Positions 2,419 to 27,537 of a stretch of DNA of 64,000 bases are shown one piece after another. The notes beneath the pieces are model-generated. The model was not told where the DNA came from and made no database searches. It was given only the letters and a program-made list of their open reading frames with translations. Made by a program: the position numbers and the translations under genes. Numbering within the stretch: the stretch's first letter is position 1; every line of letters starts with the position of its first letter. The stretch comes from an uncultured Bacteroidota bacterium (lineage in GTDB: Bacteria > Bacteroidota > Bacteroidia > Flavobacteriales > Flavobacteriaceae). Location of the stretch: contig CACIJH010000006.1 in the NCBI GenBank assembly GCA_902586905.1, positions 9,874-73,873 of the forward strand, read 5' to 3'.

Positions 2419-2427
2419 TTAAAGATT

Positions 2428-7926: not shown

Positions 7927-7949
7927 TTAGGTCTGGTCTTGTAAGTCGT

Positions 7950-10672: not shown

Positions 10673-10732
10673 AAATGTTTGTGTTATTTTTTTGATTGAC
10701 TTTTTAATTAAAGTTGTTGTTTAAAACTTTTT

Positions 10733-10825: not shown

Positions 10826-10833
10826 TTGTTTTC

Positions 10834-11259
10834 CTAATGTTTTTTTAACAACCAACTACTACTCTGTATCTTCTCGCCCAGCCCATCGATCAGCGCTACC
10901 CCTAAATCCTTACATACGGGTATTTCAGGAATGGTCTCGTTGTTTTGATCACCCCCATTGGCAAAGGCCAGTTCGAGGGTGTCGCCATAGTCCTCCGCGA
11001 TTTTGGCAATCGTTTGGCAGACTGTTCGGTCTTGGTCTATGGAAAGAATGGCTTTGTCCACCGCTTTGATGTTGGAGACAATCAACATACGTTCTTCCTC
11101 GTCTTGGAAGGGCTTGCTGCCTTTTAATTCCCTTTGACAATCGTTGTTGACAATCACAAACAGTTCGTCACACAAGGCTTTGGCATTATTAAAATACTCC
11201 AAATGCCCTTTGTGCAGGGGGTTAAAATAGCCCGAAACGATGATTGCCTTTTTCTTCAT
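10834..11259 (-). CDS. Cytidylyltransferase-like nucleotidyltransferase (TagD / RfaE-domain-II type)
   Basis: HxGH motif in VSGYFNPLHKGHLEYF. 141 aa. The start overlaps the glmS stop (TAATG). Confidence 0.7.
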   Translation of the reverse strand: MKKKAIIVSGYFNPLHKGHLEYFNNAKALCDELFVIVNNDCQRELKGSKPFQDEEERMLIVSNIKAVDKAILSIDQDRTVCQTIAKIAEDYGDTLELAFANGGDQNNETIPEIPVCKDLGVALIDGLGEKIQSSSWLLKKH

Positions 11260-13100
11260 TATTCCACCGTTACGGATTTTGCTAGGTTTCTAGGCTGATC
11301 CACATTACAACTGCGCATGACAGCGATGTGATAGGCAAGTAACTGCAAGGGGACTGATGCCAAAATGGGCGTAAGGGACTCTGTCACTTCTGGGATCTCA
11401 ATCACATGATCCGCCAATGATTTGACAGACTTATCGCCCTTGGTCACAACGGCAATGATTTTCCCATCTCTGGATTTAATTTCTTGGATATTGCTCACAA
11501 CCTTTTCATAATGCCCTTTGTTAGTAGCAATCACCACCACAGGCATGTTTTTGTCGATAAGCGCAATAGGGCCATGTTTCATTTCTGCTGCAGGATAGCC
11601 CTCTGCGTGTATGTAGGAGATTTCCTTTAGCTTTAGCGCCCCTTCCAAAGCCACTGGAAAATTATACCCCCGGCCTAAATACAAAAAGTTGGCAGCATCT
11701 TTGTAATTTTTTGCAATCTGCTGAATCTCCTTTTCACTTTTCAGTACGGTTTGTACGGCATTGGGAAGGGTTTCCAATTCCTCGGCAACACGATTAAACT
11801 CTTCTGCTGATAATGTTCCGCGCAATTGCCCCAAACGCAATCCAATCAAGATCAAGAGTGTGATTTGAGTAGTAAACGCCTTAGTCGATGCCACCCCAAT
11901 TTCTGGGCCTGCATGGGTGTAGGCACCTGTATCCGCAACGCGGGCAATGGAGCTTCCCACCACATTACAAATCCCAAAGACAAAAGCCCCTGATTCTTTG
12001 GCCAGCTTGATCGCTGCTAAAGTGTCTGCTGTTTCGCCAGACTGAGAAATCGCAATCACGACATCGTCTTTATCAATCACGGGGTTGCGATAGCGAAACT
12101 CGGATGCGTATTCCACCTCAACAGGGATACGAGCTGCATCTTCAAACAAATATTCGCCCACCAAGCCTGCGTGCCAAGAGGTGCCACAAGCAACAATAAT
12201 GATTCTTTTGGCTTTCTGAAACACCTCTTTGTGTTCTTCTAACCCAGACAATAAAATCTGTTGTTCATCCCTATGAAGCCTTCCCCTAAAGGTGTCGATA
12301 ATGGCATTGGGCTGCTCATAAATCTCTTTGAGCATAAAATGGTCATAACCCCCTTTCTCTATTTTTTCCAAACTAAGTTGCAGTTCTTGAATATGTGGAT
12401 CAACCCGACTATTGTCTGGAATCGCGTACATTTTTAATCCCTTGTCTTGGTTGATGACTGCCATTTCGTTGTCTTCCAAATAAATGGAACGATTGGTATA
12501 TTCAATAAAAGGGGAAGCGTCAGATGCTATAAAGTATTCATCTTTCCCAAGGCCAATGGCCAATGGGCTTCCGAGTTTGGCAACCACCACTTCTTTGGGT
12601 CTTTCTTTGTCAAAAACAGCAATGGCATAGGCACCAACCACTTGATTAAGCGCAATTTGAACGGCTTTTCCTGTTTTGAGTCCTTGCGTGATTTGAATGT
12701 GTTCAATCAGGTTGACCAAAACTTCTGTGTCTGTTTCAGAAGAGAAGCTAAACCCCTGGTCAGTCAAATAGGATCGTAGTGATTCGTAGTTTTCAATGAT
12801 CCCATTGTGAACCAATACCAAACGACCAGAGTTGGAGGTGTGTGGGTGAGCATTCACATCATTGGGAACACCATGTGTTGCCCAGCGTGTATGGCCAATG
12901 CCAAGTGTGCCAGAGCGATGATTTTGTTCTGCCTTTGCTTCCAAATCTGCAACTTTTCCTTTGGTTTTGGTCAGGTGTAATTCGCTGTTGAGTAAGGCAA
13001 TCCCTGCACTGTCATAACCTCGATATTCAAGGCGTTTTAACCCCTGAATTATAATAGGATATGCAGCGCGATATCCGATATAACCTACAATTCCACACAT
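11259..13100 (-). CDS. glmS: Glutamine--fructose-6-phosphate aminotransferase
   Basis: MCGIVGYIG N-terminal nucleophile, two SIS domains and the C-terminal ...LAKSVTVE. 613 aa. Confidence 0.97.
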   Translation of the reverse strand: MCGIVGYIGYRAAYPIIIQGLKRLEYRGYDSAGIALLNSELHLTKTKGKVADLEAKAEQNHRSGTLGIGHTRWATHGVPNDVNAHPHTSNSGRLVLVHNGIIENYESLRSYLTDQGFSFSSETDTEVLVNLIEHIQITQGLKTGKAVQIALNQVVGAYAIAVFDKERPKEVVVAKLGSPLAIGLGKDEYFIASDASPFIEYTNRSIYLEDNEMAVINQDKGLKMYAIPDNSRVDPHIQELQLSLEKIEKGGYDHFMLKEIYEQPNAIIDTFRGRLHRDEQQILLSGLEEHKEVFQKAKRIIIVACGTSWHAGLVGEYLFEDAARIPVEVEYASEFRYRNPVIDKDDVVIAISQSGETADTLAAIKLAKESGAFVFGICNVVGSSIARVADTGAYTHAGPEIGVASTKAFTTQITLLILIGLRLGQLRGTLSAEEFNRVAEELETLPNAVQTVLKSEKEIQQIAKNYKDAANFLYLGRGYNFPVALEGALKLKEISYIHAEGYPAAEMKHGPIALIDKNMPVVVIATNKGHYEKVVSNIQEIKSRDGKIIAVVTKGDKSVKSLADHVIEIPEVTESLTPILASVPLQLLAYHIAVMRSCNVDQPRNLAKSVTVE

Positions 13101-13102
13101 AC

Positions 13103-14515
13103 TTATTCGATTCCTTTTCCAATCTCATAGGCAATAAAGCCAATGGATTGCAAGTGATTATGGTCTAAAATTTTTCTTCCGTCAAACACAAAAGCGGGCT
13201 TTTCCATTTGATTATAAATCTTTTTAAAGTCTTGGGTTTTAAACTCATCCCACTCTGTAATAACGGCTAACCCATGGGCTTTCTTACATGCTACCTCAGC
13301 AGAATCGACACTATGGAGTTTTGCTAACTTTCCGTTGATGTCTGTTTCCGTTTCTCCACGGAACTCCCATAAAGTTTGTAGATCCATCTGCATCCGAGCT
13401 AAAGACACTTTTGGGTCATACACAACAATCTCCGCACCTTCAGAGAGTAATTGATCTGCTACATAAATCGCTGCGGATTCTCGTGTGTCGTTGGTATCCT
13501 TTTTAAAGGCCCAACCCCAAAAGGCAATTTTTTTACCATTCACCGTATTGAATAAGGCCTGTTGAATTCGATTGGCAAACCGATTCTTCTGGTAATCGTT
13601 TATGGTAATAACGCCCTTCCAATAGTCGGCTACTTCATCTAGCCCATATTGCTGGCAGAGATAAACTAGATTTAAAATATCTTTTTGAAAACAGCTCCCT
13701 CCAAAACCGATGGATGCTTTTAAAAATTTGGGTCCAATCCGACTGTCCTTGCCAACTGCTGTGGCAACTTCTTCCACATCTGCACCTGTGGCTTCGCAAA
13801 GGGCAGAAATACTGTTGATGGAACTAATCCGTTGAGCCAAAAAAGCATTGGACACAAGTTTTGAAAGCTCGGATGACCATACATTGGTGGTCACAATTTT
13901 TTCACGTGGAATCCAATTTGCATAAATGTCAACCAATGCCTCAACGGCCTTTTTGCCTTTAGGTGTTGTGCGTCCTCCAATCAACACTCGATCTGATTTA
14001 AACAAATCGGCAATGGCTGTTCCTTCGGCTAAAAACTCGGGGTTGGACAGTACCTCAAAATGTGCTCCGTGGGGTGATTGTTCCAATATGGTTTGTATTG
14101 CCTCTGCTGTTCGAACAGGAAGTGTACTTTTTTCGACCACTATTTTGTCAGTCGTTGCAACTTCGGCAATTCGTCGGGCGCATTGTTCTACGTATGTTAG
14201 ATCTGCTGCCATCCCTTTGCCTTTACCATAGGTTTTGGTGGGAGTGTTCACAGCGATAAAAATAATATCTGCCTCCTCTATGGCTTTGTCGATATCTGTT
14301 GAAAAAAAGAGGTTTTTGTTTCGTGCTTTTGCCACAACTTCAGCCAAACCAGGTTCGTATATGGGTAGTTTGTCCAAGTCGGGGTCATTCCAAGCAGCAA
14401 TGCGCTCTTCGCTGATGTCAACCACATTAACTGTCATATTGGGACACTGCCTAGCGATCACCGCCATGGTGGGTCCGCCTACATAGCCAGCTCCAATACA
14501 ACATATCTTATTCAT
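13103..14515 (-). CDS. ugd: UDP-glucose 6-dehydrogenase, long eukaryote-like form
   Basis: [43 protein letters not shown] and [10 protein letters not shown] are near-colinear with animal/plant UGDH as I remember it. I prefer the MNKICC start at 14515 over the track start at 14536. Confidence 0.93.
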
Positions 14516-15197
14516 CGCTGTTGGTTTTGGTTGCAAAAGTAGGAATTTTATAGGTGAGCATCAGCCCTCCACGATAAGCAACAACTTCTCCTGATCCATT
14601 GAATGGTCGATAAACCTTCTCGTCTGGATTGTCCAAGTCAACCCGCCGAAGGCCTTTGTAGCCTTTATACCATGACTGTGCTAGCCCAGCGCCAATGAAG
14701 AACTCTAAACCAAACCCCTTTTTCAATCGTTTTTTATATCCAATTGTCAGCCCATAAAACGCCGCACGACCAGAGTGGTACTCATCATCTGGAATATCAA
14801 AACGATTTTCTACACCTTCTTTTTCTTCCCAATAGTCATAAATGACAGCAAAGTTTGGCTTTTGAAGGGTGAACATACCAAAGCCAAGGTGTGGGGCAAT
14901 AAACCAATTTTGGGTATCTTCTTTACGATACCATCGATATTCTAAAAACACTTGGTTTACATGAAAAGGGGTGTCGTCGAGAAGTGGTTGTTCGTCCCAA
15001 AACGAAGCAAGTACATCGAGTTGAAACGATTGTTTTTCACTCACAGGGACTTCAAGTCCAAAATTGGGAATTAAAAATGGAAGTGTTGCTAAGTTGACTT
15101 TTGCCTCGGTTTGAGCAATTACTGATGAGTTAATTAAAAGCAAGAATATTAGGTGTTTGACTTGAATAAAAGTCTTTGTGTGGGGTCTTTTGTACAT
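14508..15197 (-). CDS. Secreted outer-membrane beta-barrel-like protein (DUF3575-like)
   Basis: Signal peptide [15 protein letters not shown]. Alternating aromatic/aliphatic beta-strand pattern, and the protein ends in an aromatic-rich strand. The family name comes from memory only. Confidence 0.5.
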
Positions 15198-15202
15198 AAT
15201 AT

Positions 15203-16492
15203 CTAGTTTAGTAGGTTTCTTTTGAAATAATAAATGAGCTGACGCTTGTCGTTGGGGTCTTTTACGATTTTAATGATGCTTTTCCCCACAAGTTTTTTCA
15301 TCAGTGTGTTGATGGATTCAATGGCATCTGCTTTTCTTTTGTTGTTTTGTGAATCACTCAGGTCATCTCGCCCTATCAATTGAAGGATATCATCTGTTGT
15401 TGCTCTCAACTTTGATTGCAACAATACCAATATCATCTCCTCCTCTTCAGATAGCGCAAAAAACTCAAGTTTATTGCGTATTCCTCCACGCACCAAACGA
15501 GGCGTACGCATACGAACCACAATCACCCATAGGTAACCCAAAGTAATGATAACAAAAGCAAGCACAGCAGCATATGTAAGGTTTAAAAATAAAGTCCTTT
15601 GGTCAAAGTAGAGGCGTTCTACTTTTTCTGGGTTAGCAAAAGTGCCTATACCCAATGCTTTTCCATATAGTTGGTTGTTTTTGAAATAATACAGTGAATC
15701 CCCTCTAAAAAAGGCTGGTTCAGATTTACTGATATTGGCAGAAGTAAGTCCTTGATTATAAAATAAAACATTGTTGTTTTTCAAATCTACCACTAGATTT
15801 TGTTCTGTATCAATTGGATGGCCAAACAAATAAAACAAACTGTCTTTTTGTACAATTTTATAGGGGGACAAATTAACTGCTGTTTTTCCTAGGTTTGTCC
15901 ACTTTCTTGTGATAAAGTCAAATGTCCATATGTCTTTGTTACTTTCACCCTCAAGCCCTGTGAATTTATCAATCTCTAGGCCGCCCACACTATAAAAAGT
16001 GTCTCCCAACAAAAAACAGGAACCACCATAAGCTTCAGAAGGGAAGCTAAATCCTTTGGTGGGATAATATTCCCATTCTGTTGTCGATTCATCAAAATAA
16101 GTAAAAAAGTTGTTTGCGCGCCAAAAACCATATCCCCCATAGCGAAAAAGAGTGTCGCGATAAACAAACTGACTCGCTTTCTTCTGCTTTCGGTGTTGAT
16201 ATGATCGATCGATCCGTAAGGTCTTTTCTTTTTCAATTCGATAAATCAACCCCCCCTTGTTGCTGGTCAGATGAAGTGCATCGCTGTACCAAATGGCTGA
16301 ATAGTCAGGATAATCTTCAGGTATTGGCTCTAATAGGAAAGTGTCCCGTTTTTTGGTTAAAAAATGCTCCTTAATAATCCTGTCTTCGTAAAACCGATAA
16401 GTAGATTCGTTGGTTTTATCGTACCAGGTCTTAACAGCTGTAGGAGACTGGGCGAAAAGGGGGAGTGTAAAAAGGATTAATAATAGTCGCAT
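15203..16492 (-). CDS. Single-pass membrane protein: extracytoplasmic kelch/beta-propeller-like domain, TM helix, cytoplasmic winged-helix domain
   Basis: Start chosen at MRLLLILFTLPLFAQS (signal peptide). Repeated ...F.YGGYG..., ...FYSVGG..., ...LFYLFG... and ...LYYF... blocks are kelch-like. The TM helix is YAAVLAFVIITLGYLWVIVV. The 103-aa tail with EEEMILVLLQSKLRATTDDILQLIG and a KKLVGKSIIKIVKDPNDKRQLIYYF wing looks like a MarR/PadR-type wHTH. Confidence 0.6.
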   Translation of the reverse strand: MRLLLILFTLPLFAQSPTAVKTWYDKTNESTYRFYEDRIIKEHFLTKKRDTFLLEPIPEDYPDYSAIWYSDALHLTSNKGGLIYRIEKEKTLRIDRSYQHRKQKKASQFVYRDTLFRYGGYGFWRANNFFTYFDESTTEWEYYPTKGFSFPSEAYGGSCFLLGDTFYSVGGLEIDKFTGLEGESNKDIWTFDFITRKWTNLGKTAVNLSPYKIVQKDSLFYLFGHPIDTEQNLVVDLKNNNVLFYNQGLTSANISKSEPAFFRGDSLYYFKNNQLYGKALGIGTFANPEKVERLYFDQRTLFLNLTYAAVLAFVIITLGYLWVIVVRMRTPRLVRGGIRNKLEFFALSEEEEMILVLLQSKLRATTDDILQLIGRDDLSDSQNNKRKADAIESINTLMKKLVGKSIIKIVKDPNDKRQLIYYFKRNLLN

Positions 16493-16532
16493 AAAAATAA
16501 GACTATTTTGTTTTTTGTTTTGCAAAGATACG

Positions 16533-16540
16533 TATTTTTG
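16533..16540 (+). promoter_or_regulatory. Bacteroidota -7 promoter motif candidate (TAnnTTTG) in the divergent control region
   Basis: TATTTTTG lies 4 nt upstream of the ATG at 16545, and TTTG runs sit at 16514-16522. The spacing to the start codon is very short, so support is weak. Confidence 0.25.
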
Positions 16541-16544
16541 TCCT

Positions 16545-17615
16545 ATGACAATTAGCACTCTTATCGTTTTATTGGGTTATGGGTTTATTTTTACTTGGCT
16601 TACCATTCCACGTGTGGCTGAGATTGTAAAAAAGTACCGGATTTTTCGAAAACCCAGTGAACGTGATCTTCATTGGAGCTTTGTTCCTAAGCTTACTGGC
16701 TTGTCGTTCTATGCTGCACTTTTGGTTGTTGCTTTTGCTTTTGTCCCCTTTGTGGATGTCCAACGACTAATTCTTGTTTTGGGCGCTGGTGCAATTGTTA
16801 TCTATGTTGGTATTCGAGATGATATCTATCAGCTCAGACCTATTGTTAAGCTTATGCTTCAGCTTGTTGCTATTTCGTTTTTTGTTTTTGGAGACGATCT
16901 GGTTGTTCGCAATCTCAATGGGTTTTTAAATATTTATGAGCTCCCTCTAGGAATGGACTATTTATTCACATTTTTTATTGGAGTGTTTATGATTAATTCT
17001 TTCAATCTCTGTGATGGAATTGATGGCCTAGCAGCCATGATGGGCATCGTCATTTCTGTGTGTTATGGAGCCATCTTCTACATTGTCAGCGACTATTTAT
17101 TTTTATCGTTTTGTGTAATCCTAATTGGTTCTCTGCTAGCTTTTTTACGTTTCAATTTACCACATAAAAACAAAGTGTTTATGGGCGATACTGGATCTTT
17201 ATTTTTAGGGTTTATGTTTTACTTGTTTACCATGTATTTTGTAACGACCGATTCTGTGATTTTGTCCGTTTTTATTCCTCACAAATCCCTTGTGACTGTG
17301 GCTGCTCTTAGTGTTTTTATTGTGCCTATACTGGATTCTGGTAGTGTGTTTTTCAGTCGGGTTTGGCACAAAAAAAGCCCATTTAAACCCGACAATAATC
17401 ATATCCACCACTTGGTGCTTCACTACACCAAAAACCATATTATGGCTTCTCTGATTATCATTGCGTGTTTAACTGCTACCTTGATGTTGTTTTCACAACT
17501 TGCCTTTAGCCTTAGTCACGAGCTTACAATCATCTTGTTTTTTGTCTACCTGATTTTTTGGTATATCACACTCTTTTTTCTGCGACGAAGAGTACGTAAA
17601 GAAAAGTCTGTTTAG
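16545..17615 (+). CDS. Polyprenyl-phosphate HexNAc-1-phosphate transferase (WecA/MraY, GT4 family), initiating enzyme
   Basis: NLCDGIDGLAAMMG and FMGDTGSLFLGF motifs, about 10 TM helices. Start moved to MTISTLIVLLGY, because the 45-codon upstream extension overlaps the divergent gene. Confidence 0.85.
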   Translation: MTISTLIVLLGYGFIFTWLTIPRVAEIVKKYRIFRKPSERDLHWSFVPKLTGLSFYAALLVVAFAFVPFVDVQRLILVLGAGAIVIYVGIRDDIYQLRPIVKLMLQLVAISFFVFGDDLVVRNLNGFLNIYELPLGMDYLFTFFIGVFMINSFNLCDGIDGLAAMMGIVISVCYGAIFYIVSDYLFLSFCVILIGSLLAFLRFNLPHKNKVFMGDTGSLFLGFMFYLFTMYFVTTDSVILSVFIPHKSLVTVAALSVFIVPILDSGSVFFSRVWHKKSPFKPDNNHIHHLVLHYTKNHIMASLIIIACLTATLMLFSQLAFSLSHELTIILFFVYLIFWYITLFFLRRRVRKEKSV

Positions 17616-18682
17616 CTGCTTTTCAGCTCTTCTAAAATTTGGAATACTGGGGCTTTTACAAGCGTCCAACCCACTGCTATTACACCTCCCAAAAAGGTCC
17701 AGATAATTACCATCATCGTGCGCTGAGGTTTTGAACGTATTAAGGGAACACTTACTGGTTCAATGATCATAAAAATCGGGGTGTCTTTATTGACTTGTAT
17801 TTTGGCTTGCTCCACCTGTCCCGCCAACTCCTGAAAGACGGATGAGGTCACAGTAAATTGCGACTCTAGGCGCGTGAGTTGATTTTGGTATAAAGAAGAA
17901 GTGATGTTTAGATTTTGATCTTTAAACATCGCAATAGAGTCTTGAATTTGTTCAAACTCCTGGCGCTTTGCGTCAAATTGACTTTGAACAAACTGCAAGT
18001 TGTTTCTGGCGCTTTGGCTTTTAAACGCAATGATTTTAGTTTGTAACAAGTCTGTTGCTGCTTGTGCTAGTTGTGCTGCAATCTTTCTGTCGGAAAACTC
18101 TACCCCAATAGAAACTAGGCCTTCCTGATCATCTACCTCCACCGACAAAATTTGACCTAAAAATTCAAACAAGTCTTTGTCCTCTTCGCTAATATCAAAA
18201 AGCTTATTGGTTTGTGGAGTGGGCTCTTCATTGTTGCTGGAAAACAATAGGCTTGGTAGGCCAATGGTATACTTTTTAATTGAGGCTATAATCGATACGC
18301 CTTCACCTTGACCTATAATATAATCACGAAAGCTGATTTGGTTTTCGCCAACAGGCGTTTCAAGCAACGCCATGCGATAAGGAGAACTTTCAGCAATTTG
18401 AGGGTATAATGAAGGTGCTATTTCTTGTGGCTGGCCACCCATAATCGCTGTGAGGTTTATGCCAGCAAGAGACGCCAAGCCGCCTAGAGATGAGTTTGAT
18501 TGTCCCTCAGAAAGCTGAGGCATAAACATCGATGATGCGGTGTAGCGTACAGGTGAAACCAATGCCAAAACAATCCCTAGAACAGAGAACATAACTGTAA
18601 TTGTTATCACAAAACGCCTTGCTACAAAAACTGTTTTTAACAGAGCAATCAAGTCAATTTCGTCGTCTTTGTTGTCATTCAT
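17612..18682 (-). CDS. Wzz-type polysaccharide co-polymerase (chain-length determinant), no kinase domain
   Basis: N-terminal DEIDLIALLKTVFVARRFVITITVMFSVLGIVLAL plus PVRYTAS. Long coiled-coil periplasmic segment and a C-terminal TM helix MMVIIWTFLGGVIAVGW. 356 aa. Confidence 0.75.
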   Translation of the reverse strand: MNDNKDDEIDLIALLKTVFVARRFVITITVMFSVLGIVLALVSPVRYTASSMFMPQLSEGQSNSSLGGLASLAGINLTAIMGGQPQEIAPSLYPQIAESSPYRMALLETPVGENQISFRDYIIGQGEGVSIIASIKKYTIGLPSLLFSSNNEEPTPQTNKLFDISEEDKDLFEFLGQILSVEVDDQEGLVSIGVEFSDRKIAAQLAQAATDLLQTKIIAFKSQSARNNLQFVQSQFDAKRQEFEQIQDSIAMFKDQNLNITSSLYQNQLTRLESQFTVTSSVFQELAGQVEQAKIQVNKDTPIFMIIEPVSVPLIRSKPQRTMMVIIWTFLGGVIAVGWTLVKAPVFQILEELKSS

Positions 18683-18693
18683 TTGTCAAAATA

Positions 18694-21090
18694 TCAATTT
18701 CCGATTATTGTTCTTACAAGAAGGGTTAGGGAGGCAAGTGCCGATGTCATACCAATAACTTCCTGAACCGATACCTCGCGTTTTTGATCTTTGGTTGGAA
18801 CCACAACCACTGCACCGGGCTCAAGCCTAGGTCTTATATTAAAAATCAAGAAGCGCTTCGTTCCTTTCACGTCTCCATTTTGATAAATCACATAAGCGTT
18901 TTTATAATTTGCTGATTGTTTAGCTCCTCCTGCTTTGATGACCGCTTCTCTAAATGAAATTCCATTCGCATATGGCATTGCGGTCTCTCGCTGAACCGCA
19001 CCCAATACAGAAACTGTAGAGTCTTTTTTTGGAAAGAAAATCACATCGTTTGGCTTCAATAAAAGGTTGCCTGTGTAATTTCCTTTACTGGAAAGTATAT
19101 TTTCAAAATTAACCCCAATTTTAATATCTGTATCATCTTCATCAAAAAACAAGATGTTCAAAGAATCTTCTGTTTCTTCAATGTTGCTTTTGGTTTGATT
19201 TGAAATTTTTCTTTCGATAGAAACACCCCTCAAATTTGCTCCTGGGAGTGCTTTTCCAGCATCAAAATATAAATCATAAAGCGTATAATTTTCGTTGATG
19301 ATGGGATAAGTCCCTGGCCTGGAAACCTCCCCCTCTAATGTAACGAATGTTGTGGGCTGATAGCCTGGTTTTGCACGAACAACCATAAGGTCAGACGGGT
19401 TTAGTTCTACTTCTTTTGCTTCGTCAAACGAAAACCAGCGAGCATTAATGCGTTTGCTTTGATCCAATTCAGTTACATTGGTATACAATTCAATTTGATC
19501 TGTGTTGGCGCGATCATCAAATCCGTTGGCAATCAACACCAGATCTCTTGCTGTCATCCCTTCAAAAAAGGGATATTCGCCTGGCTCATTAACAATGCCT
19601 TGAACATCAACCGTTCTTTCAGTTTTTATATTTTCCATGGAAATGACAACCAAGCTGTCATTTGGTTGTAGTTGAATATCTTGAGTTTTGCTGGCAATCT
19701 CTGACAGATTAATCGTTTTGATTTCATTAAAATACCCTTGTGTAGATCGATACAAAATAGCTGATTCTGGATAAGCACCAGGGGTCAATCCGTTGCTGCT
19801 TTTCAATAATGCAGACAAGGTTGGTGATTCGTTTAATGGATAATTTCCAGGAAGGTATACTTCTCCCGAAACGCTCACCTTATTTGTATATTTATCCGAG
19901 ACGCTTTTTGCTTCAACCGAGTCTCCATCTGTTAGTGATGTGGAGCTGTATGATGGTTGGTCAATTTTGATGATTTCACGCTCCAGCTCTAGTACACGAT
20001 CTACATACACTGCTTTTTTATATGCTTCAGACGAAAAGCCTCCAACATAAGACAGTAAGTCTTCAACCGTCTCATTCTGCAAGGTTTCGAAGCGTCCTGT
20101 CGTCTTAAACGCTCCATCTACTGTTATTCGGTTGTGATGAGGAGAAACAACAATGACATCTTGATCGTTGAGAAAAAAGGAAGGGTATGTTCCTTTAACA
20201 AAATAGTCATATAAATCAACCGTTTGTGCACGCTTGCCGTTGCGCATGATTGAAATGTCTCGATAACTACCGCTTTCGCTTGGGCCTCCTGCTGCATAAA
20301 GTGCGTTCAAAACAGAAGAGAATCCAGAAATTGTATAGGTGCCAGGTGCTTCCACGCTTCCTGTGATGTTTACAACAATACTTCTCGCTTTTTGAAGGTT
20401 TACATCCAAATACACTTTCGATTCGTTAGGAGCATCTGGCGAAAGACCTGTATAAATCGAAGAAAATTCGTTTCTGATTTTTCGCTCTGCTGCCGCTATT
20501 GTCAGGCCAGACAAGTACATCGGTTTAAGCCTGTCTATACGAACAACTCCTTGCCTCGATAAGGTCAATTCATAGCGGTTTTCCGAAGCGCCCCAAACAT
20601 CAATAGAGATTTCGTCCGTTGGTCCTAAGCGATATCCTGCAGGTGTTGCCACATAAAACTGTGGTGTTTCGGTTATCTTTTGATTGGCGAAAAAAGCACT
20701 TCCAAAAATATCAGATTCTTCTTCCTCTTCACCAAACATAAGCATCGCTGTGTCGTTTCCAAAGCCAAGAGATTCTTGATTTTGCATGTTATTTTCGTCT
20801 TGGTCATCGCCGCCCTCTTGGTTCTCTGCCCAAGCATTTCGAAGCAGAGACAAGTCTTGAAGAGTTGCGCCTTGAGCTTTTGCCAATCCTTCTAGCTGCA
20901 CCAAAGAATATCCTCGCTTTCGAGCTTCAATCACATAACTCGTTTGCTGTTTTGGGGTTAAGTTTCGAATTTGTGTCAAAAAGGGGGTTGTGTCTTGTGC
21001 AGCTGACGGGGCTACAAATAAGAACAACAATAACACTGAACTGTTCGTTAATAATCTTCTTACCATACCACTAAAGAAAACCTTTTGCAT
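18694..21090 (-). CDS. Wza-like polysaccharide export outer-membrane protein with multiple SLBB-type repeats
   Basis: Signal peptide and the Poly_export-like YRLGPTDEISIDVWG motif. The G.V..PG.Y. motif (e.g. GSVEAPGTYTI, GEVYLPGNYPL, GIVNEPGEYPF, GEVSRPGTYPI) recurs. 798 aa. Confidence 0.8.
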   Translation of the reverse strand: MQKVFFSGMVRRLLTNSSVLLLFLFVAPSAAQDTTPFLTQIRNLTPKQQTSYVIEARKRGYSLVQLEGLAKAQGATLQDLSLLRNAWAENQEGGDDQDENNMQNQESLGFGNDTAMLMFGEEEEESDIFGSAFFANQKITETPQFYVATPAGYRLGPTDEISIDVWGASENRYELTLSRQGVVRIDRLKPMYLSGLTIAAAERKIRNEFSSIYTGLSPDAPNESKVYLDVNLQKARSIVVNITGSVEAPGTYTISGFSSVLNALYAAGGPSESGSYRDISIMRNGKRAQTVDLYDYFVKGTYPSFFLNDQDVIVVSPHHNRITVDGAFKTTGRFETLQNETVEDLLSYVGGFSSEAYKKAVYVDRVLELEREIIKIDQPSYSSTSLTDGDSVEAKSVSDKYTNKVSVSGEVYLPGNYPLNESPTLSALLKSSNGLTPGAYPESAILYRSTQGYFNEIKTINLSEIASKTQDIQLQPNDSLVVISMENIKTERTVDVQGIVNEPGEYPFFEGMTARDLVLIANGFDDRANTDQIELYTNVTELDQSKRINARWFSFDEAKEVELNPSDLMVVRAKPGYQPTTFVTLEGEVSRPGTYPIINENYTLYDLYFDAGKALPGANLRGVSIERKISNQTKSNIEETEDSLNILFFDEDDTDIKIGVNFENILSSKGNYTGNLLLKPNDVIFFPKKDSTVSVLGAVQRETAMPYANGISFREAVIKAGGAKQSANYKNAYVIYQNGDVKGTKRFLIFNIRPRLEPGAVVVVPTKDQKREVSVQEVIGMTSALASLTLLVRTIIGN

Positions 21091-21093
21091 GTG

Positions 21094-22740
21094 TTATGAG
21101 TTTATTTTTTCTAAGATTTTTTGTGTAATCGTGTAGGTCGGTACGACTCCCGTTTGACCCAATGAGCCAGAGGCCAAGGTGCTACCTGTTTCTAAGGGGT
21201 TATCCGAAGCGTAGTAAGCATAGCGAATTTTGATGTTCGGACGAACTGTTTTTCTGATATGCATAGCAGACTGAATCGCTTTTTGATAATGAACTCCTTC
21301 CATTTCGATTCCTATTACCTTCCAAGAGGAGCCGCAAAAATACGTTAAAATGTCTTTGTTTTGAAGAGATGTGCCTAGAACAGTAATCATTGTTCCTTTA
21401 TAGGTTGGGATTTTTGTGCTGGCAAAGTCGTCTGGCGACAAGTCATTCTCAAAAGGATAATTGTCGGATGTACCTTCAAAAATATGTGCTGTTGGTACCA
21501 TGACGTCTCCTTTTTTGCCATTCATAATCCCTGCTTTACCCATAATTGAAATCGATTCCAATTGCTTCCCAATATTCGTTTTTAACAGCTCGTCCATCAG
21601 CTCGTATGCTTGTTCGCCAAAGGCATAATCAAACACAACCAAAACTGTCCCCTTTGCAAACGCATACTTGTTCCCCTTTATTTTATCGGTATCTATAATT
21701 TGTGCGTGTACGTTGCTACCAGTATTGTCCTTTGTTTCGATAAACCCTTGTTTTTTGGCAAATTGATTTACTTTTTTCTGATTGGTTTGATCATCTATAA
21801 ACTGGCCAAACCATGTTTTGTCCTTTGCCGTTTTGCCCAATGCCTCTTCTGCATAAATTGTATTTAGAAAGCTATGCCGATTTGCAGAAACCAAATGGAT
21901 TGGTCGGTCAACGAGCTTGTGTTGTTCCAACACCTGATAAAGCTGGTTTGCCCAACGTTCACCATGGATGTGATGTCCAATCTGATCTCTTAACATTGCG
22001 CTAAATGTTATCACCCTCTTGTTCCCTTTACTGCGTTCGTTTATGGCAACGCGAACCATGTGATAGATCAGCCGAATGAATCGATGAGGGTTTTTTGGGG
22101 TTTGAAAACGATTGTAAAAATCCGTTGCTTCGTTATATGTACACTCCAATAGTTGCGCCAAATACGCCATTGTTGATTCCAATTCATTCTTCCCAACGGT
22201 TTTGGTTGAGGTGGCTGTGGCTTCAATTTTTTGCCATTCACGTATAGTTTGTTTAGATGATGGGATATACACTCGATTGCAAATTTTATCTGCCTCGATA
22301 TACAAAAATGTCAAATGCGTCAGGATGTCATAAACCTCTGATCGCCCTCTTGTGACCTCTATGACCATTTGGTCCTTGTCGATACGATAGCAGTTTCGTC
22401 TTCTTTTGGCAGGGATAATCGGTTGAAAACTAGAGGAGGATAACCCCTCTTCTGCTGTCATATTGATCGAAACACACTCTGTTATACCCTCTGGCAAACG
22501 ATCGATAACGTACAACAAGCCATTTAACTCTGTTTTGGTTTCTGCAATTGTGCCATAAATCTCTGGTTTCAGGGTGAGTAATGCTTTGCGTAATGATGTG
22601 CCCGAAACACCCATAGGTTTGTAAAACCCTCGGTTGAGTAGGTGGCGCATACTGATATACATCCGAGCAATGGCGTTGGATGAGTCTTGCGCACGTTTTC
22701 GCAGAGCTGCCGAAACTGTTGGTTGTTGCGTCATTGACAT
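21094..22740 (-). CDS. Conserved-looking protein of unknown function; C-terminal ~200 aa resemble the nucleoside phosphorylase (PNP/UDP, AMP-nucleosidase) fold
   Basis: C-terminal blocks VLVVFDYAFGEQAYELM, ISIMGKAGIMNGKKGDVMVPT, GTMITVLGTS and VIGIEMEGVHYQKAI are colinear with the four core motifs of MtnN/Udp/Amn-type enzymes. I do not recognise the N-terminal ~330 aa. Confidence 0.55.
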   Translation of the reverse strand: MSMTQQPTVSAALRKRAQDSSNAIARMYISMRHLLNRGFYKPMGVSGTSLRKALLTLKPEIYGTIAETKTELNGLLYVIDRLPEGITECVSINMTAEEGLSSSSFQPIIPAKRRRNCYRIDKDQMVIEVTRGRSEVYDILTHLTFLYIEADKICNRVYIPSSKQTIREWQKIEATATSTKTVGKNELESTMAYLAQLLECTYNEATDFYNRFQTPKNPHRFIRLIYHMVRVAINERSKGNKRVITFSAMLRDQIGHHIHGERWANQLYQVLEQHKLVDRPIHLVSANRHSFLNTIYAEEALGKTAKDKTWFGQFIDDQTNQKKVNQFAKKQGFIETKDNTGSNVHAQIIDTDKIKGNKYAFAKGTVLVVFDYAFGEQAYELMDELLKTNIGKQLESISIMGKAGIMNGKKGDVMVPTAHIFEGTSDNYPFENDLSPDDFASTKIPTYKGTMITVLGTSLQNKDILTYFCGSSWKVIGIEMEGVHYQKAIQSAMHIRKTVRPNIKIRYAYYASDNPLETGSTLASGSLGQTGVVPTYTITQKILEKINS

Positions 22741-24224
22741 TCTTTTTTAAGTTCGTCTGCTATTTTTCGATCGTTCGTCAAGCGTGGAACCTTATTTTGT
22801 CCGCCCAATTTACCGATTCTTTTCATATAGCGTGAAAACCCTTCTTTTTGAACGACTTTAATTTCCAAAGGACGCAGTACTTTTCCTTTGATTAGATCGT
22901 CATAATATCTGTTTTGTTTACACAGTTGCTGGTCAACGTCCAAGCAAAATTGTTTAATATCTTTTGGGGGCGAGGTAAACTCGATAAACCACTCGTGATA
23001 CGGAAGTCCTTCTTGGGGGTTGACTTGAGGGGCAACTGTGAATTCGCTGATTTCAATATCAGTTTCGCTTGTTGCTTGCAGCAAAGCTTGTTCGACCTCT
23101 TTCCCAATCACGTGCTCGCCAAAAGCAGAGATGAAGTGCTTGATGCGACCCGAAACCACCACTCGGAAGGGAAATAAGGATGTAAATATCACAGTGTCTC
23201 CGATGTTATACCCCCACAAACCTGCGTTTGTGGATATAATTATCACATAATTAACGCCCAACTCCACTTCAGCCAACCCTAAACGTGGAGGTGATGCATC
23301 ATAAAACTGGTCTGCAGAAATAAACTCATAAAAAATCCCTGAATCAAGTTGTAGGAGCATCCCTTCTGCGTCTGGATGATCCTGAAAAGCAAAAAAACCT
23401 TCAGAGGCAGGGTAGAGCTCCACACTTGGTATATGACGACCTACTAAACTTTCTAGTTTTGTTCGATAGGGCTCATAATTTACCCCTCCATACACAAACA
23501 AGTTAAAGTTTGGGAACAAGTCCCCTACTTTTTTACCTGTTTTTAACTGTAGTTTCTCATAATACATGCTCACCCAAGGAGGAATGCCACTAATCAAACG
23601 CATATCTTTTTGGTGGGTCTCTTCAACAATGGCATCTACTTTTATTTCCCAATCTTCAATACAGTTTGTTTCCCAAGAAGGTAATCGATTTTTTTGAAGG
23701 TATTTTGGTACATAATGAGCCACGATGCCCGAGAGACGTCCCAAATCAATTCCGTTTTTCTTTTCAAGGATTGGGCTTCCTTGTAAGAAAATCATTTTGC
23801 CATCTACAAATGAGGCGTCATCCGTTGCTTCGATATGACAAAACAAAGCGTTTTTAGCTGCCTCGATATGGGTTGGCATTGATTCCTTGGTGAGTGGGAT
23901 ATACTTCATCCCAGAAGTTGTTCCTGATGTTTTTGCAAAATATAAGGGTTTGCCTGGCCAGAGCACATCCGCTTCACCCTCAACCACTCGATCTACATAT
24001 GCGCGCAGGCCCTCATAATCAGCGACAGCAACCTGCTTTACAAAGTCTTTATGGCTTTGAATTTGGTCGAAGTTATGGTCTTTACCAAAAGCTGTGTGTT
24101 TTGCTTTCTCAATCAGCTGCTTTAATACTTTTTGTTGGGTCTCAATGGGTTTTGATGACCAATAATTTATTTTTTTTCTTGCGCGTTTTGCGAGTTGTTT
24201 CGCTATCAGTTTTCGCAATGACAT
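22731..24224 (-). CDS. GH3-family (acyl-acid amido synthetase-like) adenylate-forming enzyme
   Basis: FAKTSGTTSGMKYIPLT (the GH3 SSGTT..K.IP motif), YGGVNYEPY and YASEGFF-like YPASEGFFAFQ. 497 aa. Confidence 0.85.
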   Translation of the reverse strand: MSLRKLIAKQLAKRARKKINYWSSKPIETQQKVLKQLIEKAKHTAFGKDHNFDQIQSHKDFVKQVAVADYEGLRAYVDRVVEGEADVLWPGKPLYFAKTSGTTSGMKYIPLTKESMPTHIEAAKNALFCHIEATDDASFVDGKMIFLQGSPILEKKNGIDLGRLSGIVAHYVPKYLQKNRLPSWETNCIEDWEIKVDAIVEETHQKDMRLISGIPPWVSMYYEKLQLKTGKKVGDLFPNFNLFVYGGVNYEPYRTKLESLVGRHIPSVELYPASEGFFAFQDHPDAEGMLLQLDSGIFYEFISADQFYDASPPRLGLAEVELGVNYVIIISTNAGLWGYNIGDTVIFTSLFPFRVVVSGRIKHFISAFGEHVIGKEVEQALLQATSETDIEISEFTVAPQVNPQEGLPYHEWFIEFTSPPKDIKQFCLDVDQQLCKQNRYYDDLIKGKVLRPLEIKVVQKEGFSRYMKRIGKLGGQNKVPRLTNDRKIADELKKECQ

Positions 24225-24225
24225 C

Positions 24226-25095
24226 TTATTCGAATTCTATTAACTCCGTTGGGTTGATGGGATAACCATCACTCCAAAGTTCCAAATGTAAATGAGGCCC
24301 TGTTGATAAGGTTCCTGTGCTTCCTGCAAAACTGATTACCTCGCCAGAAAGAACAAGGTCGCCTTGATTGACAGCTAAAGATTCGTTGTGTTTGTAAACA
24401 GAGATAAGGTTTTGTTGGTGTTTGATGATTACAACATAGCCTGTCTCTGTTGTCCATTCAGCCAAAATCACTGTTCCGTCCGACACTGCTTTTATAGGTG
24501 TTTTTTCTGGTACGCTGATATCAACTGCAAAATGGTTTTCGGATGGGGAATATCCTTGTGTGATCACCCCAGTCACTGGTGTAAATAGCGTAAAGTTGTT
24601 TTCGGTCCCAGCTGTTTCAAATAAATTGAATCGATCTTCCTGTGCAACTTCTGCGCGTAGAATAGAATCTTGTTTGTTTGTGCTAAAGTCCAGCTCCTCT
24701 AGCTGGTCTATGTCATCTATTGATCCACTCGATGGTATGTCTTCTAGATCCACATTTCCACTCAATGCGTCAGCGATAGAGGTAATATATCTTTCATTTA
24801 AAAACAGTTGCTGCTGCAAGGAATCTATAAGGTAAGTATTGTTTATTGCCTGTCGTCGCAGTGCTGTTGAATCATATCCTGGTATATATTCTTTGAGTGG
24901 TGTAACTGAAATAATCAAATATGTGGCGGCAATTAAAAGAATCGCCGAAATACTCAAAATCATAAACACATTGAGTCGACTCAACTTATATGACAACATC
25001 TCCTCAAATGTGTTCTCATTGAGAACCACAAAGCGGTATTTTGCCACAAGTCTGGAGCGAAATGATTTGTTGTCTTTATTGTTTGATTTGGCCAT
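24226..25095 (-). CDS. Membrane-anchored M23 (LytM-type) metallopeptidase
   Basis: HFAVDIS, TGYVVIIKH and STGPHLHLELW zinc-site motifs, with an N-terminal TM helix. Start set at MAKSNNKD (25095); the track start is 25128. Confidence 0.85.
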   Translation of the reverse strand: MAKSNNKDNKSFRSRLVAKYRFVVLNENTFEEMLSYKLSRLNVFMILSISAILLIAATYLIISVTPLKEYIPGYDSTALRRQAINNTYLIDSLQQQLFLNERYITSIADALSGNVDLEDIPSSGSIDDIDQLEELDFSTNKQDSILRAEVAQEDRFNLFETAGTENNFTLFTPVTGVITQGYSPSENHFAVDISVPEKTPIKAVSDGTVILAEWTTETGYVVIIKHQQNLISVYKHNESLAVNQGDLVLSGEVISFAGSTGTLSTGPHLHLELWSDGYPINPTELIEFE

Positions 25096-25177
25096 CGTTT
25101 GCAAATATAACCAACTCTGTTTTGGCACATCTTACAGTTCTAAAAAACTTTACTACATTTGCTTAAAATAATCGTTT

Positions 25178-25354
25178 ATGTCCTCTTTATTTCTGCCGTT
25201 AGCAATTGGTCCTTGGCAAATTGTTCTTCTTGTTGTCTTGGTTGTTCTTCTTTTTGGAGGACGTAAAATTCCAGAGCTTATGCGCGGTCTTGGCACTGGC
25301 ATCAAAGAGTTTAAAGATGCCTCAAAAGAAGAAGATTCTGAAAAAGAAAAATAA
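25178..25354 (+). CDS. tatA: Twin-arginine translocase subunit TatA/E (58 aa; below the ORF-track length cut-off)
   Basis: My translation of nt 25178-25354 is MSSLFLPLAIGPWQIVLLVVLVVLLFGGRKIPELMRGLGTGIKEFKDASKEEDSEKEK*. It has the canonical TM helix, then FGG.K(I/L)PE, then an amphipathic helix. Confidence 0.85.
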   Translation: MSSLFLPLAIGPWQIVLLVVLVVLLFGGRKIPELMRGLGTGIKEFKDASKEEDSEKEK

Positions 25355-25355
25355 A

Positions 25356-26342
25356 TTACTTCTTTTCTTTTATAGATCTCAGTATCGTCTCCACTTCAAA
25401 AATATAATCTCGCTTTGCTGTTGATGGGGCAAACACAAAACCTTCTAATACAATATTTCGATTGTTGGCCTTGTCGTTGATGATGTATTGTAAAAAAGGG
25501 CCTGCCATAAAATCGCCTTGGACTTCCCACGTTCCTCGTATTTCTACCGCTGGCTTGTTACCAAAGCTTGTGTGATACACATATGGCTCATAGGCTTTTT
25601 CTGTAATCAAATAACTGTTGGGCAATCGCCCTGGGATAAACGCTTTTCCAATAGAGTCTCGCTTAGCGATGATTTGTTCTAGGTTTTTTTGCGAAACGAT
25701 CGTTTCGTCATAAGGGGTAGTCAACACCAATAGATTGACATGTCCTTTTTGTGTTTCTCGTTGAAACCAGATTGTGTTTTCGCCTTCTTTAAGCGTATTG
25801 TAAGCAGATGGCATTGTGAGAGAAATCCCAAATTTTTCCTCCAGTCCATGATTTGTATAGGTAGATTTTCTAATTCTTCGCAATCTTTCGATGCGTTCTT
25901 GCTTGCGTATCGTTTCTATGACTTTATTGGACTGAGATATAATGATTTCTGTCAATTGATTTGTTGTTGGCGCAGTAAACACTGCTATCGTTTGGGGTTG
26001 TGCATAGGTGTTTTTAGCGATTCGCGCACTGGTTTGATCGCTAATACCAATCCACAATACACTTCGGCTTGACTGTGCAAATCCAGTAAAAATCTCTGGG
26101 GGGATTTGCTTGAGATCATACAATGGCTCTTGTTGTGGTAAACCTTCCGCTGGGTAAGCATACATGTCTCTAACTGTTTGTCCAATACTGCCTTGCCACA
26201 ATTGATTGGGCATCACCACTGTTACTGTATTGATATTTCCATTCGAGGACAGAACAAGGGGTGTGCCTTTTTTAGTCTGACAAGAGACCATTATCAATAC
26301 AGAAAAAATAAGGGTCAAGTTTTGTTTCATAATGATTAACAA
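25356..26342 (-). CDS. Lipoprotein of unknown function (DUF4837-like)
   Basis: Lipobox LIMVSCQ and 328 aa. The family name is from memory only. Confidence 0.6.
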   Translation of the reverse strand: MLIIMKQNLTLIFSVLIMVSCQTKKGTPLVLSSNGNINTVTVVMPNQLWQGSIGQTVRDMYAYPAEGLPQQEPLYDLKQIPPEIFTGFAQSSRSVLWIGISDQTSARIAKNTYAQPQTIAVFTAPTTNQLTEIIISQSNKVIETIRKQERIERLRRIRKSTYTNHGLEEKFGISLTMPSAYNTLKEGENTIWFQRETQKGHVNLLVLTTPYDETIVSQKNLEQIIAKRDSIGKAFIPGRLPNSYLITEKAYEPYVYHTSFGNKPAVEIRGTWEVQGDFMAGPFLQYIINDKANNRNIVLEGFVFAPSTAKRDYIFEVETILRSIKEKK

Positions 26343-26349
26343 CCAAAAA

Positions 26350-27537
26350 CTAAGCCAAAATCGCAGCTATTCCTGGGAGTGTTTTTCCTTCCAAACTCTC
26401 AAGCATCGCACCTCCACCAGTTGACACATAACTAACTTGATCTTCCATCTCAAACTGCTTCACAGCAGCTACAGAGTCCCCACCACCAACGAGTGAGAAG
26501 GATCCGTTTTTAGTGCTTGCTGCAATCGCTTCACCCAAAGCAATTGTCCCTTTAGAAAAATGAGAAAACTCAAAAACACCTACAGGGCCATTCCATAAAA
26601 TCGTTTTACAGCTAGACACCACTTCTGCAAAAGCAGCAATCGTTTCAAGTCCTGCGTCCATCCCTTCCCACCCATCAGGAATTTGATCAATGGGAAACAC
26701 TTGTTGTTTTGCGTCGTTTGAAAAGCTGTCGCCTGCAAGCACGTCTTTTGGTAAATGAACATGAACACCCTTTTCTTTTGCATTCGCTAAGATCGATAAA
26801 GCCAACTCCTGTTTGTCATCTTCACAAATCGAGTTTCCGATACTTCCACCCATTGCTTTGGCAAAAGTAAAAGACATTCCGCCACCCAAAATAAGATGGT
26901 CAACTTTGTCTAATATGTTTTCAATAATCGTGATTTTTGAAGACACTTTTGCTCCGCCAAGAATTGCCAACACTGGCTTTTCTCCAGACAACATCACACG
27001 ATCGATCGCGTCGATTTCTTTTGCCAACAGAAAACCAAAGTATTTTGATGTCGGGAAAAATTGGGCAACTGTTGTTGTTGAAGCGTGTGCGCGATGCGCT
27101 GTTCCAAAGGCATCGTTGATATATGCGTCTGCTAACTTTGCTAATGATTGTGCAAATTGCTTATCTCCTTTGGTTTCTTCGTCATAAAACCTCAAGTTTT
27201 CGAGCAGCATCACCTGGCCTGGTTGTAGTGCATTTGCCATCTGTTCAGCCTCTCTTCCTATCGTTTTGTTTGAAAAATGTACTTGAACACCCAATACCTT
27301 TTCTATTTCAGCAACAATGTGACGAAGTGATAGGTTGTCATCCACCCCTTTTGGTCGGCCTAAATGGCTCATCAACACACAGCTTCCTCCATCTGCCAAA
27401 ACCTTATCAATTGTTGGTTTGGCTGCTATAATTCTGGTGTTGTCTGTTACAGATTTGTTGTCATCCAATGGAACATTGAAATCAACTCGAATCAATACTT
27501 TCTTGTTTGTAAAACTGGTTTTATCTATGGTTTTCAT
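26350..27537 (-). CDS. pgk: Phosphoglycerate kinase
   Basis: [29 protein letters not shown] and STGGGA motifs. 395 aa. Confidence 0.97.

Follow-up and report, generated by a model that had tools for sequence, protein, structure and literature searches.

The stretch analyzed here (the window) comprises 64,000 nucleotides (nt) of contig CACIJH010000006.1 from an uncultured member of the Flavobacteriaceae, and our subject is a gene within it that encodes a protein of 548 amino acids (aa). The gene stands third in a chain of five consecutive open reading frames (ORFs) on the minus strand, which the ORF list gives as an M23 peptidase, a GH3-family protein, the 548-aa protein, a Wza-like protein and a Wzz-like protein, separated in that order by a gap of 1 nt, an overlap of 10 nt, a gap of 3 nt and a gap of 11 nt. 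At the junction of the GH3 gene with the 548-aa ORF, the GH3 stop codon TGA is nested in ATG-TCA-ATG-A, the second ATG of which gives an ATGA overlap, while the junction between the 548-aa ORF and the Wza-like gene reads TAA-cac-ATG. The ORF list, the junction sequences and the Pfam families bear out an earlier note on this DNA, made from the sequence alone, which had described five minus-strand genes chained by gaps or overlaps of 1 to 11 nt. The 548-aa protein belongs to the Pfam family DUF6909. We consider it probable, though by no means assured, that it is a cytoplasmic two-domain enzyme with a predicted base-cleaving domain of the NP-I (PNP/UDP/MTAN/Amn) type, and that it lies beside the GH3 and export genes mostly by inherited gene order. 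The features of the chain are as follows.

24226..25128, minus strand: M23 peptidase gene, with GTG at 25128 and an in-frame alternative ATG at 25095 (Pfam Peptidase_M23, E value 1.3e-27)
22731..24224, minus strand: putative GH3-like acyl-acid amido synthetase, 497 aa, an OlsH-family paralogue (Pfam GH3 N, M and C domains)
21094..22740, minus strand: DUF6909 protein, 548 aa (P0001; PF21850, 208.4 bits; AlphaFold2 model available)
21976..22740, minus strand: DUF6909 N-terminal domain, residues 1 to about 255, conserved and without a detectable fold relative
21097..21960, minus strand: DUF6909 NP-I domain, residues about 261-548, from the predicted fold and conserved motifs
18694..21090, minus strand: Wza-like outer-membrane polysaccharide export gene, which opens a variable polysaccharide island (Pfam Poly_export and five SLBB stretches)
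17612..18682, minus strand: Wzz-like chain-length determinant gene of the polysaccharide co-polymerase (PCP) kind (Pfam Wzz 32.3 bits, cut-off 25.5; GNVR 26.6 bits, cut-off 27.7)

The 548-aa protein is a full-length member of DUF6909 (PF21850), scoring 208.4 bits against a gathering threshold of 27, with the match divided into two stretches at profile positions 6-230 and 279-533 of 535. Of 301 genomes in a sample of the whole phylum, 31 contained the family, as against none of 14 control genomes. The positive genomes included all 22 of the window's own family, the Flavobacteriaceae (f1), as well as 3 of 3 genomes of f2, 1 of 5 of f6 and 3 of 8 of f11 (f2, f3, f4, f6, f9 and f11 are other families of the phylum sample). 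A library-wide phmmer search with DUF6909 returned 675 cluster representatives at E≤0.001, and at least 599 species-representative genome loci encode a relative. Many of these relatives are 630-960 aa long, and in all 24 of the long forms that were aligned a cNMP_binding domain stands in front of a complete DUF6909 unit. Other fusion variants carry a GAF domain or a receiver domain (Response_reg, in P0074). Records that hold fused forms are titled as metagenome-assembled genomes of Spirochaetota, Myxococcota, Planctomycetota and Gemmatimonadota, and unfused forms come from many genera of Flavobacteriaceae and from Saprospiraceae. In a FastTree phylogeny, 29 fused forms together with one short unfused row fell on one side of a branch with Shimodaira-Hasegawa-like support of 100, and the Bacteroidota forms fell on the other side, where the f1 sequences made up one clade (support 99). 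DUF6909 is a vertically inherited core gene in the Flavobacteriaceae. The fusion of sensor domains to the whole DUF6909 unit suggests a signal-regulated enzyme. In public databases the relatives are named 'hypothetical protein' or 'CRP-like cAMP-binding protein', and the word DUF6909 was not found in any paper of the literature searched.

The surroundings of the fused genes differ from those in the window. In spirochaete loci the fused DUF6909 gene comes after pheS-pheT, and genes for receivers, histidine kinases or CheB-CheR proteins were found within 8 kb on either side of the fused gene in 10 of 19 loci, all of which are kin. In two spirochaete genomes (L102, at 7314-7802, and L103) the gene immediately before the cNMP-fused DUF6909 gene codes for an adenosine-specific kinase (PF04008), which hints faintly at a connection with adenosine or adenylate metabolism. 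With regard to the window's own protein, its terminal branch in the tree measures 0.69 changes per column, compared with about 0.02-0.4 for other family members. The genome from which the window was taken amounts to 1.35 Mb at 70% completeness, and genomes of the genus range from 0.9 to 1.7 Mb, so that the long branch fits fast evolution in a small, streamlined genome.

The structure of the protein was predicted with AlphaFold2 from an alignment (A1) of 30 DUF6909 orthologues, consisting of the window's protein and those of 29 other genomes, with a mean column identity of 67%. The model of the whole protein had a predicted local distance difference test score (pLDDT) of 80.6. A Foldseek search of the PDB with this model gave 481 matches at E≤0.001, and every listed match was an NP-I enzyme. 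The best was the methylthioadenosine/S-adenosylhomocysteine (MTA/SAH) nucleosidase 1z5n, with an E value of 4.8e-6, and AMP nucleosidase (1t8s, 2guw and 7uwq), futalosine hydrolase, uridine phosphorylase (UP) and hexameric purine nucleoside phosphorylase (PNP) were also present. Alignment of the model by VIA-align to PNP, UP, MTA nucleosidase (MTAN) and futalosine hydrolase gave Z scores of 13.8-14.7 and root mean square deviations of 2.6-3.3 (about 2.9) over 193-228 residues (about 205 of about 233). The aligned range of the model, from residue 261 or 279 to 548, spans essentially the whole of the NP-I target chains, and the match to MtnN and to hexameric PNP/UP (PDB 1z5n, 1xe3 and 3kuk) extends over the whole catalytic chain. 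Since the NP-I subfamilies were tied in Z, DUF6909 is assignable to none of them. On the strength of these models, the C-terminal domain is predicted to have a phosphorylase-type NP-I fold. It begins at about residue 261-280, with an apparent insertion of about 60 aa at about residues 306-365. The earlier note had recognized a phosphorylase-like C-terminus in the last 200 or so residues, with VLVVFDYAFGEQAY as one of its blocks. The fold itself was recovered by both Foldseek and VIA-align, but the domain is longer than proposed, and because it starts earlier and seems to contain an insertion, VLVVFDYAFGEQAY is probably an internal strand-loop and not the first strand, as judged from the ranges aligned by VIA-align.

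The residues expected of an NP-I enzyme are conserved across the DUF6909 family. In an alignment of 68 family members drawn from both major clades, M480, E481, S512 and D513 were identical in all 68 rows, K402 and N287 in 67, and E479 and S290 in 65, and a further group of residues (H289, D371, G375, Q377, G401, G404 and P515) was identical in 64-68 rows. Compared by eye, Escherichia coli MtnN has G-S-A-G, G-D, G-D-A, E-M-E and S-D in the same order as DUF6909 has G-K-A-G, G-D, G-T-S, E-M-E and S-D-x-P, a colinearity that includes G-x-A-G, E-M-E and S-D. By comparison with MTAN and PNP, the E-M-E block would be ribose-binding and the aspartate of S-D, after the last strand, would be catalytic. 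DUF6909 differs from MtnN, PNP and UP in several respects. It shows 10-15% identity to them with no significant sequence or profile match, it has an additional N-terminal domain of 255 aa, and the loop after its first strand is N-x-H-S (N287, H289 and S290) and not the phosphate-loop or catalytic-glutamate motifs of these enzymes.

A second model, covering residues 9-338 and made from an alignment of 49 sequences, was used for the N-terminal domain. This model was of high quality (pLDDT 90, predicted template modeling score 0.84), yet Foldseek found no match to it in the PDB (best E value 0.034, probability 0.18, template modeling (TM) score about 0.1), VIA-align against 48,161 representative chains gave a best Z of 3.7 with none at Z≥5, and a search of BFVD gave no match (best E value 0.22). 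In the ESM Atlas the best named cluster for residues 9-338 was AMNp_N, the N-terminal family of the AMP nucleosidase Amn, with a score of 0.76 that is at chance level. The lack of a match in the PDB and BFVD does not prove a new fold. That the N-terminal 330 or so residues are unrecognizable, as the earlier note had it, therefore holds for residues 1 to about 255, where the fold searches were empty, but not beyond, where the NP-I domain begins. Five residues of the N-terminal domain (Y77, P83, D138, E149 and K152) are near-universal, each being the same in 65 or more of the 68 family members, and many of the domain's arginines, lysines and histidines are invariant within the Bacteroidota set A1 only. 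The domain is as conserved as the putative catalytic part.

Among characterized enzymes, a close parallel in architecture is AMP nucleosidase (Amn; E. coli b1982; PDB 1t8s, 2guw and 7uwq), in which, as in DUF6909, a non-catalytic N-terminal domain is followed by an NP-I catalytic domain. Amn hydrolyzes AMP to adenine and ribose 5-phosphate and is under allosteric control by ATP and phosphate. Its chains were among the top Foldseek matches, and by eye both proteins have S-D-x-P-L after the last strand. However, the Amn N-terminal family AMNp_N (PF10423) was not detected in DUF6909 by Pfam, by the chance-level ESM Atlas score or by hhalign (probability 0.17), the DUF6909 N-domain model did not align to the Amn N-domain in VIA-align, and the NP-I domain of DUF6909 apparently contains the 60 or so additional residues described above. 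PF10423 was found in none of the 301 Bacteroidota genomes, and a complementary distribution of DUF6909 and Amn is thus uninformative. By analogy with the way in which the N-domain of Amn regulates that enzyme, the N-domain of DUF6909 may bind the phosphates of the substrate or an allosteric ligand.

The assignment of the neighboring gene product (P0002) to the GH3 family, as first made from the sequence, was confirmed by all three GH3 Pfam domains, PF03321, PF23571 and PF23572, whose scores of 132.1, 54.2 and 76.7 bits all exceed the cut-off of 23.6. The protein also matches the NCBIfam equivalog model OlsH_GH3_orni (NF052613) over its full length, with 377.4 bits, below the cut-off of 620 bits. 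Orthologues at 45-68% identity occur in many families that lack DUF6909. From these comparisons the window's GH3 appears to be a separate, more widespread acyl-acid amido synthetase that is related to OlsH, and its products are likely N-acyl amino acids. The report on OlsH (J Biol Chem 2025, PMC12493201) describes the enzyme of the planctomycete Singulisphaera acidiphila as a lyso-ornithine lipid synthetase that carries out ATP-dependent N-acylation of ornithine. The same report assigns about 90% of bacterial GH3 matches to the Bacteroidota, where other N-acyl amino acids are suggested and ornithine is held to be an unlikely substrate, and it attributes the ornithine lipids of Bacteroidota to OlsF/OlsB (PMC12493201). 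A 2026 review states that GH3 homologues outside the planctomycetes may use other amino acids (PMC12971839). The literature searched on bacterial GH3 yielded no characterized member beyond OlsH.

Two or three GH3 paralogues are present in most genomes of the class. The second GH3 of the genome that contains the window (contig C9:1859-3448, equivalent to L003:790-2379, minus strand) is 529 aa long and 38% identical to the first; it scores 224.8 bits with the Pfam GH3 N-domain, compared with 117.3 for the window's protein, and 404.2 bits with the OlsH model, again below 620. Outside the window's family (L064, L069 and similar loci of f3, f4 and f9), dxr and a gene for an M50/RseP-type protease come after the orthologous GH3 gene, as checked with Pfam in two loci, and no M23 gene precedes it. 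In genus g2 (L036, L037, L040-L043, L045, L048 and L058) the gene upstream of GH3 codes for about 160-200 aa that match only the non-catalytic N-terminal residues 20-170 or so of the window's M23 protein, and the peptidase domain seems to be absent.

The conservation of the gene pair was followed in two samples of loci. The first contained 29 loci with 8-kb flanks, from 22 f1 genomes and seven genomes of f2, f6 and f11, and the second, named sample contained 53 loci, 51 with at least 2.5 kb of upstream and 45 with at least 3 kb of downstream sequence. The order M23, GH3, DUF6909 on one strand was found in 18 of the 22 f1 genomes and in none of the seven others, and GH3 was upstream of DUF6909 in 31 of 51 loci of the second sample. 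The wider upstream flank in the window (holB, pgk, DUF4837, M23, GH3, DUF6909) is the same as that in other f1 genomes. The tight spacing in the window is not conserved, in that gaps between GH3 and DUF6909 in f1 loci were mostly 23-450 nt, with starts set at the longest ORF, and 6 of the 18 syntenic f1 loci had an extra ORF between the two genes. Nor did the two genes occur together across families. All 16 genomes of f3 have a GH3 orthologue at 45-57% identity and none of them has DUF6909; four genomes (G143, G175, G235 and G247) have DUF6909 with GH3 only as paralogues of 36-41% identity; and in f2 the two genes are 92-142 kb apart. The pair is therefore a case of family-level synteny without co-distribution, by which a shared pathway is not indicated. 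The pair is conserved in many Flavobacteriaceae, but the two-enzyme module proposed in the earlier note is not supported as an obligate unit.

Contigs from seawater metatranscriptomes of two studies cover the stretch at about 98-99% identity. In runs X1, X2 and X4 they span both the Wza/DUF6909 and the DUF6909/GH3 junctions, and in X9 they span the former. Such contigs are only compatible with co-transcription, as a single transcript is not demonstrated by contigs and RNA libraries may be contaminated with DNA; parts of the stretch that had no contig cover in X4 and X9 were not read as lacking expression. A promoter and terminator scan of positions 17000-26500 returned counts at or below the shuffle means, with a tool that does not cover Bacteroidota promoters.

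Downstream of DUF6909, all 22 f1 genomes had the Wzz-like gene c4 and/or rfbB, rfbA, rfbC, Wzx, Wzy and sugar transferase genes, and polysaccharide genes were likewise found in 38 of 45 loci of the second sample. In the window, as in 15 of the 22 f1 loci, no more than 11 nt separate DUF6909 from the next gene. The product of c4 had no match in Pfam or NCBIfam; the ESM Atlas shows a likeness between it and Wzz clusters (feature score 0.91, structure TM 0.65/0.76), and hhalign of c4 with the window's Wzz gave an alignment limited to an N-terminal E-x-D-L stretch. No polysaccharide genes flanked DUF6909 in f2, f6, f11 or Saprospiraceae. The description of the gene pair as embedded in a Wza/Wzz export operon applies within the window's genus, where 9 of 18 other genomes have DUF6909 and Wza at a contiguous junction. 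Elsewhere it does not, and a linkage of the GH3/DUF6909 pair to wza conserved across Bacteroidota genomes, which the earlier note had put forward as a check, was not found, as none of the 29 loci of the first sample and none of the 53 of the second, all outside the genus, had a Wza homologue next to DUF6909. The Wza/Wzz adjacency is therefore specific to the window's genus.

The two neighbors of DUF6909 behave differently when the gene order is broken. The M23-GH3 order was kept in all 18 syntenic f1 loci and in all four f1 genomes in which DUF6909 is elsewhere (G055, G191, G223 and G275), and in these same four genomes DUF6909 still stood in front of c4 and rfb-type genes. In the second sample GH3 was not upstream in 12 of 53 loci, nine of them titled Tenacibaculum or Polaribacter, and DUF6909 still preceded polysaccharide genes. 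On separation from GH3, DUF6909 thus remains at the head of the polysaccharide locus. In Flavobacteriaceae it is either the core gene that borders a fixed variable island or the gene with which the polysaccharide locus opens. New in this analysis are the sensor fusions, the corrected domain boundaries and the observation that DUF6909 keeps more closely to the polysaccharide locus than to GH3.

These data bear on several explanations of the locus. If GH3 and DUF6909 cooperate, GH3 would adenylate and amidate a carboxylate and free AMP, and DUF6909 would remove the AMP or another adenylate by-product, or else the pair would make a small conjugate as a signal for the export machinery. AMP would be a fitting substrate for an Amn-type fold, and the common strand, the overlap in the window, the position of GH3 upstream of DUF6909 in most f1 genomes and the contigs that bridge the junction all agree with such a module, although the contigs have the limits stated above. 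The lack of co-distribution (most clearly in f3 and in the four DUF6909 genomes without an orthologous GH3), the intervening ORFs, the mostly wide gaps and the separate fates of the two genes, GH3 with M23 and DUF6909 with polysaccharide genes, argue against it, and we regard the proposed GH3 and nucleosidase module as weakly supported and unlikely. A somewhat less unlikely, but still doubtful, explanation is that the Flavobacteriaceae DUF6909 belongs functionally to the surface-polysaccharide locus, where it might adjust the supply of nucleotides or nucleotide sugars, or clear away a nucleotide released as glycans are assembled, and would be co-transcribed with the chain-length determinant. 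The consistent presence of c4 and/or rfbB/A/C as the next genes, the short gaps that precede them, the retention of this order where GH3 is not upstream and the likeness of c4 to Wzz clusters would be accounted for. Against this, hhalign gave no link between c4 and the window's Wzz, the flanking genes are missing from f2, f6, f11 and Saprospiraceae, the fused relatives adjoin pheST and two-component genes, the separations from GH3 may represent only about two rearrangement events among kin, and a core gene that borders a fixed variable island would give the same pattern.

Other explanations concern the protein itself. DUF6909 might have no catalytic function and serve as a ligand sensor or scaffold, with a pocket that retains only the shape of an NP-I site, as it has no known activity and no significant sequence match to active PNP_UDP_1 enzymes, and the glutamate beside the conserved Q377 is not retained in the fused forms. 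We think this quite improbable, as the expected NP-I motifs are near-universal (E-M-E in 65-68 of 68 rows and S-D in all 68) and the sensor domains precede DUF6909, which takes the position of an output domain. A role as an anti-phage ATP-nucleosidase effector seems the most improbable of all. A report on the Cap17/DtcC ATP nucleosidases of CBASS and Detocs (bioRxiv 10.1101/2023.01.24.525353) describes effectors of the same PNP fold that act under sensor or receiver domains, a precedent for signal-triggered nucleotide cleavage. A receiver fusion of DUF6909 exists (P0074), and cNMP-binding domains also occur in Pycsar effectors. Those effectors are genes of defense islands that are detectable with PF01048, whereas DUF6909 is a core, vertically inherited gene with its own N-domain in a fixed chromosomal context, and in Flavobacteriaceae no conserved partner cyclase or kinase adjoins it. 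No family of PADLOC-DB 2.0.0, a 2023 library that may lack ATP-nucleosidase models, matched the window's DUF6909 or the DUF6909 part of fused forms, for which the matches were weak and confined to the cNMP or receiver part.

The reading that we favor remains that of a two-domain enzyme with a predicted base-cleaving NP-I domain whose position next to GH3 and the export genes is mostly inherited. Family membership, fold, motif conservation, domain fusions and gene-order statistics are what the analysis shows, and from these we infer the catalytic activity, the class of substrate and the role of the N-domain. Since the fold is of the NP-I type and the motifs can be read as E-M-E and S-D, cleavage of an N-glycosidic bond is the most likely activity, in a purine nucleoside or, with greater probability, in a phosphorylated nucleotide. 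The N-domain would bind phosphates of the substrate or an allosteric ligand, as proposed above. In other phyla the DUF6909 unit, placed under cNMP-binding, GAF or receiver domains, would act as a regulated output enzyme, and in Flavobacteriaceae the core gene sits at the edge or the head of a variable surface-polysaccharide locus.

Several results weigh against this reading. PNP_UDP_1 (PF01048; cut-off 25.1 bits) had no match in the window's DUF6909 at E≤0.1; weak matches were obtained in two relatives (E values 0.0034 and 0.0092, 15.8-17.3 bits) and in 1 of 24 fused forms (E value 0.00024). The A1 profile found no phosphorylase among PDB sequences at E≤10, and hhalign of A1 with the single E. 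coli MtnN and Amn sequences gave probabilities below 1 (0.17 for Amn). A C-terminal DUF6909 alignment of 54 sequences found nothing when compared by hhalign with small MTAN, DeoD and PunA alignments, which are thin as templates, and Smith-Waterman scores of the C-terminal 193 aa with MtnN and with the C-terminus of Amn were in the range of shuffled sequences. The mapping of E-M-E and S-D onto the catalytic residues of E. coli MtnN and Amn was therefore made by eye, and the DUF6909 structures are predictions. In addition, a pathway shared with GH3 could still lie behind the 10-nt overlap seen in the window and the persistence of the synteny, and a pure nucleotide housekeeping role leaves unexplained the Wzz-like and rfb genes that follow DUF6909 in 22 of 22 f1 genomes and 38 of 45 loci.

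It is tempting to speculate further, although only tentatively, that DUF6909 represents a new class of signal-controlled nucleotide nucleosidase or phosphorylase that resets a nucleotide pool, either adenylate or a nucleotide messenger, and in which an NP-I catalytic domain is joined to an N-domain of a fold unseen in solved structures. In Spirochaetota, Myxococcota and others it would do so at the command of cAMP/cGMP, of GAF ligands or of phosphorylation, whereas in Flavobacteriaceae the command would come through the N-domain itself, coupling nucleotide status to the start of surface-polysaccharide synthesis. The family is widespread, a core gene of marine Flavobacteriaceae, and uncharacterized. 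If its substrate were identified, bacterial nucleotide metabolism or signaling would gain an enzyme, and a confidently modeled domain that has no structural relative would gain a function, and the cNMP-binding fusions offer a direct experimental handle in the form of ligand-activated activity.

With respect to the window itself, the GH3/DUF6909 pair should not be placed in a sulfated-polysaccharide pathway on position alone, and the caution attached to the original proposal, that the link of the pair to this particular glycan may be positional only, was well founded. The polysaccharide island downstream of Wzz, at positions 557-17615, contains genes for a GT4 sugar-phosphate transferase, Ugd, GlmS, CysQ and a GT2 protein, together with an adenosine 5'-phosphosulfate (APS) kinase fused to DUF2061, CysD/CysN-type genes, an acetyltransferase and a weak match to a repeat-unit polymerase. 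This content, which includes 3'-phosphoadenosine 5'-phosphosulfate (PAPS) synthesis, points to a sulfated surface glycan. Within the island, the GC content falls to 26-29% at 2-6 kb of the window.

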